From the NCBI RefSeq assembly GCF_001677475.2, contig NZ_CP015229.1: 64,000 nucleotides of DNA. The stretch is one strand, 5' to 3'. Shown one piece after another: positions 45,220 through 45,375 of the stretch. The stretch comes from Escherichia coli. GTDB taxonomy: Bacteria; Pseudomonadota; Gammaproteobacteria; Enterobacterales; Enterobacteriaceae. The notes below the pieces were generated by a model. The model worked only from the letters and a program-made list of their open reading frames with translations. It was not told the origin of the DNA and ran no database searches. Position 1 is the stretch's first letter, and each line of letters begins with the position of its first letter. The position numbers and the translations under genes are program-made.

Positions 45220-45284
45220 ATTTCCTCCGCATGTTGCCCGGGCAATTCTAGAGTAGCGGGATCAGATGGCAATCGCTTATTGGC

Positions 45285-45306
45285 AAAATGACAATTTTGT
45301 CATTTT
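45285..45306. promoter_or_regulatory. CusR box in the cusR-cusC divergent promoter
   Basis: aaaatgacaattttgtcatttt, perfect inverted repeat matching the CusR consensus AAAATGACAANNTTGTCATTTT. Confidence 0.85.
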
Positions 45307-45375
45307 CCTGTCACCGGAAAATCAGAGCCTGGCGAGTAAAGTTGGCGGCATAAAATCACCAGAAATTATGAGCCT

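Follow-up and report, generated by a model that had tools for sequence, protein, structure and literature searches.

The divergent intergenic region between cusR and cusC raises two questions: whether the palindrome near its middle is the known operator of the copper/silver response, and how a symmetric site could bring about activation that is asymmetric and strongly biased towards cusC. Both are considered here for a stretch of 64,000 nucleotides of Escherichia coli DNA (contig NZ_CP015229.1), in the following called the window. The region measures 156 bp (45220..45375, no strand assigned) and is bounded by the open reading frames and by the RefSeq annotation of matching genomes, with the cusR ATG at 45219 on the minus strand and the cusC ATG at 45376.

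The sequence and a pattern search of the window place the 22-mer AAAATGACAATTTTGTCATTTT at 45285-45306. In this CusR/HprR box (45285..45306, no strand assigned), the arms AAAATGACAA and TTGTCATTTT flank a TT centre. A repeat search returned the arms as 45285-45294 and 45297-45306, each of 10 nt, 100% complementary and 2 nt apart. The initial annotation had called the box a perfect palindrome, which is correct for the arms only. The 22-mer as a whole is not fully palindromic: its central TT lacks self-complementarity, which leaves 20 of the 22 positions self-complementary. The published E. coli CusR box, which lies between cusRS and cusC(F)BA, reads AAAATGACAAnnTTGTCATTTT and has 'nn' in the centre (Yamamoto & Ishihama 2005, quoted in PMC11195947). 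All 20 specified bases agree with the window 22-mer, with 0 mismatches, which bears out the suggested match to the known CusR site. The box is also centred between the divergent start codons, as had been stated, if a deviation of 2 bp is accepted (box centre 45295.5 versus spacer centre 45297.5). Between the box and the two start codons there are 65 nt on the cusR side and 69 nt on the cusC side. In E. coli K-12, the identical 22-mer, including its TT centre, occupies the same position in the spacer, with the same flanking genes in the same orientation.

With up to 3 mismatches allowed, the box pattern matches once in the 64-kb window, and at the same tolerance it is absent from all 100 dinucleotide-preserving shuffles of the window. 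A chance origin of the 22-mer in the window is excluded. The 14-nt core TGACAANNTTGTCA occurs only once in exact form within the window, and its two matches with 2 mismatches elsewhere in the window are at chance level (2.46 expected). The box was thus identified by identity to a defined site, by the shuffle control and by phylogenetic footprinting. Identity to a site defined by experiment, combined with a footprint across genera, carries more weight than the score of a weight matrix would, and no observation speaks against the identification. The stretch 45285-45306 is almost certainly the already known CusR/HprR operator in an intact cusRS/cusCFBA locus.

The spacer is a common feature of the species. 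It was found in 5333 of 5426 complete E. coli genomes, and the exact 30-mer 45277-45306, which covers the box, is present in 5147 complete E. coli genomes. For a 25-kb part of the window (positions 20000-44999), the best match among these genomes reaches only 98.3% identity. The cus DNA (43104-51508) shows about 97.1-97.2% identity to E. coli references and about 95% to E. whittamii and Escherichia sp. MOD1, whereas the cus spacer is 99.4-100% identical. Judging from these comparisons, the window stems from a sparsely sampled Escherichia lineage, and conservation is stronger in the control region than in the genes.

The attribution of the site to CusR is well supported by published binding data. 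ChIP-chip gave a single CusR peak in the cusR/cusC spacer (bioRxiv 10.1101/2020.08.17.251918), and in gSELEX unphosphorylated CusR bound only this spacer (PMC8249747). According to the E. coli literature, phosphorylated CusR activates both divergent cus operons. The site is not exclusive to CusR, however. The highest HprR peak in gSELEX is found at the same place, CusR and HprR recognise the same sequence (PMC8249747), and a ChIP-seq site of PhoB overlaps the right arm (PMC10294691). The initial assignment as a CusR box is therefore correct but incomplete.

The DNA next to the palindrome may help to explain how a symmetric site can act in one direction. The right arm runs on as TTGTCAT-TTTC-CTGTCAC, so that a third half-site, TGTCAC (45309..45314, plus strand), repeats the TGTCAT of the right arm (45298-45303) in the same orientation. 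It is 11 bp away from it on the cusC side, one helical turn from the cusC-side arm. The conservation of this element was followed by scanning for the exact 22-mer pattern in one genome per species, for 100,044 species, which yielded 37 loci. A CusR homologue is encoded beside 14 of them. These are found in Escherichia (three), Citrobacter koseri, Shimwellia, six Providencia species, Psychromonas, Acinetobacter dispersus and a Rhodocyclaceae MAG. The Providencia loci are already quite distant, with CusR only about 70% and CusC about 41% identical.

At all 15 CusR-linked loci, the window counted, a TGTCA-like half-site is present in the +11 register, on exactly one side of the box. It scores 5/5 positions at 13 of these loci and 4/5 at the other two, while the opposite side never exceeds 2/5. 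The element is present in Providencia, Psychromonas and Salinisphaera, among others, and in 4/5 versions in Acinetobacter, Psychrobacter and others. In contrast, none of 14 AT-rich control loci without cus genes has a third half-site of at least 4/5 on either side. At every locus with identifiable neighbours, the third half-site is on the side of the regulated gene. This gene is cusC in Escherichia, Citrobacter and Providencia, and elsewhere a DUF411 gene (locus L033) or a gene for a CusB/HlyD-type adaptor (L017). In Psychrobacter fozii (L037), it faces a gene for a small Met/His-rich protein.

Several of the loci deserve separate mention. Small secreted Met/His-rich proteins are encoded directly downstream of CusR-type boxes in Psychrobacter fozii (L037, left of the box at 1974) and at L043 3289-3786. 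The P. fozii protein has no Pfam match, and judging from sequence, these proteins look like metal binders of the SilE/PcoE type. In Citrobacter koseri NCTC10786 (L036 3094-3773), cusR is recovered by tblastn in three pieces that lie in different frames, with the box and the third half-site intact; the pieces could reflect frameshifts or assembly errors. The exact 22-mer was also found next to genes unrelated to copper, namely an enolase-superfamily gene in a Comamonadaceae MAG with 67% GC (L004 1529-1550), a gene for a TctC receptor in Xylophilus, again with 67% GC (L008 3299-3320), and a ureidoglycolate-lyase-like gene in Klebsiella spallanzanii (L026 4221-4242). A chance match of an AT-rich 22-mer at 67% GC, as at L004 and L008, is unlikely. 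The third half-site is absent at the boxes of L004, L008 and L026. The 22-mer loci of the AT-rich MAGs, Comamonadaceae and Xylophilus were rejected as homologues, as no cus or copper genes adjoin them, and served as controls.

When 12 spacers of Escherichia, Citrobacter and Providencia are aligned, it becomes apparent how selectively the region has been preserved. The mean column identity is 50%, and outside the invariant blocks the spacer is scrambled. Invariant are the box except for its first central base, the TGTCA of the third half-site (45309-45313), and the single bases T45337, A45338 and T45342. The one position at which the window spacer differs from that of K-12 (155 of 156 bases identical) is 45307, outside the box and between the right arm and the third half-site. 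Here the window has C and K-12 has T. In the alignment, C at this position is common to E. whittamii, Escherichia sp. MOD1, C. koseri and all six Providencia species, which suggests that the T of K-12 may be the derived state. At 45302-45322 there is a further inverted repeat, ATTTTCCTGT / ACCGGAAAAT, with 9 of 10 positions complementary and 1 nt between the arms. It shares bases with the right arm, with the third half-site and with the -35 position, and T at 45307, as in K-12, would reduce its complementarity to 8/10. This repeat may be due to chance.

The three invariant single bases have a plausible role in transcription. They are positions 1, 2 and 6 of TAAAGT (45337..45342, plus strand), a candidate -10 hexamer of cusC that we infer from the consensus and from the conservation across three genera. 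The transcription start site of cusC would then be near 45349. Relative to this start, the box would span -64 to -43, with its centre at -53.5, and the third half-site would occupy -40 to -35. At its -35 position, cusC carries the poor hexamer CCGGAA, as is expected at an activator-dependent promoter. On the opposite strand, TTGCCA-16 nt-TAGAAT (45245..45272, minus strand) is a candidate cusR promoter that agrees with the consensus at 10 of 12 positions and is the only sigma-70-like match in 45150-45450. It would place the cusR start near 45238 and the box centre near -57.5. In the alignment, this candidate promoter is not conserved in Providencia.

These elements can be combined into a mechanism, for which binding and induction are taken from the literature on the identical K-12 sequence, and to which the present analysis adds sequence identity, conservation and the intactness of the genes. 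In the established cus system, periplasmic Cu(I) or Ag(I) binds the sensor domain of CusS, which autophosphorylates on H271 and passes the phosphate to D51 of CusR. Phosphorylated CusR then binds the inverted repeat 45285-45306 and would activate the weak cusC promoter, with its predicted -10 hexamer TAAAGT, no usable -35 element and the box at about -64 to -43. It would also boost the near-consensus cusR promoter on the other strand, resulting in positive autoregulation. For the third half-site (45309-45314, at about -40 to -35), which is arranged head-to-tail with the cusC-side arm, we infer that it probably helps to place the activator beside RNA polymerase. The paralogous regulators HprR, for peroxide and hypochlorite, and PhoB, for phosphate limitation, also read the same DNA, so that the site integrates several signals.

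The tripartite layout is not confined to the cus promoter, but is seen again at three others, those of hiuH, of a silC-like and of a silE-like gene. The HprR/CusR box at hprR/hiuH (CATTACAAAATTGTAATG; PMC9302797) is likewise an inverted repeat in a divergent spacer between a regulator and its target, and it is read by both CusR and HprR. It is located outside the window, its half-site is TGTAA instead of the TGTCA at cus, and it was bound by HprR with lower affinity than the cus site in gSELEX (PMC8249747). The third half-site follows 11 bp away on the target-gene side, as TGTAAT-GCTGC-TGTAAG, and shows the same TGTAA variant as the arms of its own box. In the plasmid sil/pco copper boxes (pcoE TGACAAnnTTGTCAT, PMC11195947), the arms are imperfect, with 1-2 core mismatches; the loci are plasmid-borne and regulated by the SilR/PcoR paralogues as well as by CusR. 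A blastn search of the spacer against plasmids aligned only the cusR coding part to the sil loci, whereas a pattern search recovered the sil boxes. In a silR/silC-like spacer on a Salmonella plasmid, AAAATGATAGCTTTGTCATTAT is followed by CA and TGTCAT, giving TGTCAT-TATCA-TGTCAT. At the silE-like promoter, which precedes a gene for a Met/His-rich protein, AAATGACGAACTTGTCATTAT is followed by TC and GGTCAC, giving TGTCAT-TATTC-GGTCAC. Both are tripartite, as at cus.

An experimental precedent is AgrR of Cupriavidus metallidurans, a response regulator of the same CusR/CopR-type family, whose box consists of ATKACANNNNTGTMAT and in-phase direct repeats (PMC7380067). Footprinting and mutagenesis showed that the inverted repeat and the direct repeats both contribute to binding and are both needed for activation; mutation of either element impairs activation, and the promoter-proximal half-site is the better conserved one (PMC7380067). 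AgrR differs from CusR in the sequence of the half-sites and in the organism, and it was active in the unphosphorylated state in the strain used for that work. For AgrR, the function of the direct repeats has been tested; in the literature examined, we did not find an equivalent test for E. coli CusR.

The same bases have, however, been described in another context, and the E. coli papers examined attribute the third half-site to PhoB. The counterpart of a published PhoB ChIP-seq site lies at 45298..45315 on the plus strand, overlapping the CusR box (TGTCATTTTTCTGTCACC in K-12, TGTCATTTTCCTGTCACC in the window). TTGTCAT-TTTC-CTGTCAC has the form of a Pho box, with two direct repeats at a period of 11 bp, and the spacer between the repeats is TTTC in the window versus TTTT in K-12. 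It is conceivable that two separate sites overlap, with the palindrome as the complete CusR/HprR operator and 45298-45315 as a Pho box that is used by PhoB only and raises cusC expression under phosphate limitation. This reading accounts for the PhoB ChIP-seq site at cusR/cusC and for the more than 2-fold fall in cusC expression in a phoB deletion, and cross-species conservation of the PhoB site has been reported (PMC10294691). Further evidence for PhoB at this spacer comes from ChIP-chip, gel shifts and reporter assays (PMC3465305). The sequence is suitable as well, since each repeat in 45298-45314 matches CTGTCAT at 6 of 7 positions, separated by the 4-bp A/T-rich spacer that is typical of a Pho box. 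The position is less so. Classic Pho boxes replace the -35 element and end about 10 bp upstream of the -10 hexamer. Here, 22 bp separate the end of the proximal repeat (45314) from the -10 hexamer (45337), which departs from the classic Pho spacing, although the -10 hexamer is itself a prediction. Two further points argue against a site for PhoB alone. The third half-site accompanies CusR-family boxes at every locus that we looked at, including hiuH and the silC-like and silE-like promoters, and AgrR itself needs the equivalent direct repeat (PMC7380067). We consider a separate PhoB-only site less likely than not.

The reading as a CusR operator with three half-sites does not exclude a PhoB site, and the two are not mutually exclusive. 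It would mean that the operator of the CusR family in Enterobacteria consists of an inverted repeat and of a direct repeat that follows at a distance of 11 bp, nearer to the promoter and invariably towards the target gene. The PhoB site reported at cusC and hiuH would then be this third half-site, cross-read by PhoB as a paralogue. On the strength of the conservation pattern, we regard the arguments for and against this proposal as evenly balanced. The conserved three-half-site architecture is only a modestly new point. If correct, it would explain the asymmetric, strongly cusC-biased activation from a symmetric site, and also why PhoB, HprR and CusR converge on the same promoters. If CusR uses the third half-site, the published definitions of the CusR/HprR box and the copper biosensors based on PcusC omit a functional element, and the reported link between PhoB and cus may in part represent cross-recognition between paralogues.

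The initial annotation had also taken the box as support for an intact cusCFBA system. The system is indeed intact, but it is the genes, rather than the box, that show this. The point is illustrated by E. coli O19:H7 730V1 (L041 3110-5830), which carries an IS903B element in the cusR/cusC spacer, after the equivalent of 45328 and thus between box and cusC, and an ISKpn26 element inside cusC. The strain retains the CusR box and cusRS, and is a natural knockout. Since 730V1 keeps the box despite both insertions, the box alone is no proof of intactness.

In the window, all six cus genes, which were identified by NCBIfam cut-offs and by the RefSeq annotation of matching genomes, are full length, have no internal stops and encode proteins that are 97-99.6% identical to those of K-12. 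The response regulator gene cusR (44536..45219, minus strand, 227 aa) scores 506.7 bits for NF007346, versus a cut-off of 420. CusR is identical to the K-12 protein at 226 of 227 positions, with M116 for L as the sole change, and D51 is present. Nothing differs after residue 116, and the DNA-binding half is therefore identical to that of K-12. The sensor histidine kinase gene cusS (43104..44546, minus strand) encodes 480 aa, counted from the K-12-equivalent start, while the mechanically determined open reading frame reaches 44558. It scores 983 bits for NF007345, versus a cut-off of 423.

The four CusCFBA components also score above the family cut-offs, and have the same lengths as in K-12, except for CusC with 2 more residues. 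The outer-membrane channel gene cusC (45376..46755, plus strand, 459 aa; NF007347, 897 bits versus 598) encodes a protein with an N-terminal lipobox-like LTGC sequence, identical to K-12 CusC at 450 of 457 positions, with 2 additional residues at the C-terminus. The gene for the periplasmic metallochaperone, cusF (46782..47114, plus strand, 110 aa; NF007348, 205.8 bits versus 143), differs in a single residue (109/110 identical), and the H-x7-W-x2-M-x-M motif starts at precursor position 58. For the periplasmic adaptor gene cusB (47130..48353, plus strand, 407 aa; NF007303, 853.8 bits versus 390), 400 of 407 residues are identical, and M49, M64 and M66 are present. The RND permease gene cusA (48365..51508, plus strand, 1047 aa) scores 1664 bits for TIGR00914, the CusA/CzcA family, versus a cut-off of 701. 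CusA is identical at 1041 of 1047 positions, and has M573, M623, M672, D405, E939, K984 and the four Met pairs. We take CusA M573/M623/M672, CusB M49/M64/M66 and the CusF H-x7-W-x2-M-x-M motif to be the residues that bind or relay the metal.

The cusC-cusF spacer is 26 bp long in the window (46756-46781), versus 157 bp in K-12 (L002 9531-9687). The extra K-12 DNA looks like an ERIC/IRU repeat. CusC has 457 residues in K-12, 459 in the window and 460 in the clinical strain FDAARGOS_497, and the two-residue shortening in K-12 results from the extra DNA between cusC and cusF. The intact box and operons aid annotation and predict a baseline tolerance to copper and silver, but offer nothing new in themselves.

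A rival reading is that the box is intact, but that amino-acid changes keep the system of this strain from responding to metal. CusS is the most diverged of the six Cus proteins (467 of 480 residues identical to K-12), with M133 of K-12 replaced by I and 12 other substitutions, and CusA carries R260C, D643G and V955E relative to K-12. M133 is a listed Ag(I) ligand of a second, accessory metal site of CusS, and deletion of the Met triad lowers function somewhat, but is largely tolerated (PMC10100754). Of this second site, S84/M133/M135/H145, the window protein has I133, keeps M135 and has no listed difference from K-12 at S84 and H145; M134 is retained as well. The interface site H42/F43/H176, which has been described as driving dimerisation and autophosphorylation (PMC12589874), is present, and so is the phosphorylation site H271. 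No difference at residue 133 is listed between CusS of the window and of FDAARGOS_497. This strain evidently carries I133 too, and I133 is thus a natural allele. No known metal ligand is altered in CusA, CusB or CusF. A loss of the metal response in this strain is therefore very improbable.

It is hardly credible that the palindrome arose by chance or has a structural role, for instance as a hairpin or a bidirectional terminator, and that no protein binds it: the exact 22-mer pattern does occur in AT-rich Firmicutes, Mollicutes and CPR MAGs without cus genes, in some cases within longer hairpins (L014, L015), and the region folds somewhat better than its own shuffles (z = -2.73), but the window shuffles contain no match, no terminator-like site was found, the predicted RNA fold leaves the box arms unpaired with each other, there is no transcript to terminate because cusR and cusC diverge from the spacer, the base sequence itself, beyond its pairing, is invariant across genera, and binding to the identical K-12 sequence is documented.

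Some features elsewhere in the window were recorded as well. A tRNA is located at 35801-35874. In the collinear strain d1-58, the corresponding gene is annotated as tRNA-Arg, and envY, ybcH, nfrA and nfrB come directly after it. At this tRNA, K-12 carries the DLP12 prophage and ompT/appY, which appear to be absent from the window at this place. Among Rfam hits above the gathering score, two tandem sok antitoxin RNAs (57326-57481 and 57829-57985) suggest a duplicated hok/sok-type locus, and further hits at 58930-58971, 14308-14374 and 1100-1190 comprise an ES036 sRNA, an STnc480 sRNA and an AgrB-like antisense RNA.
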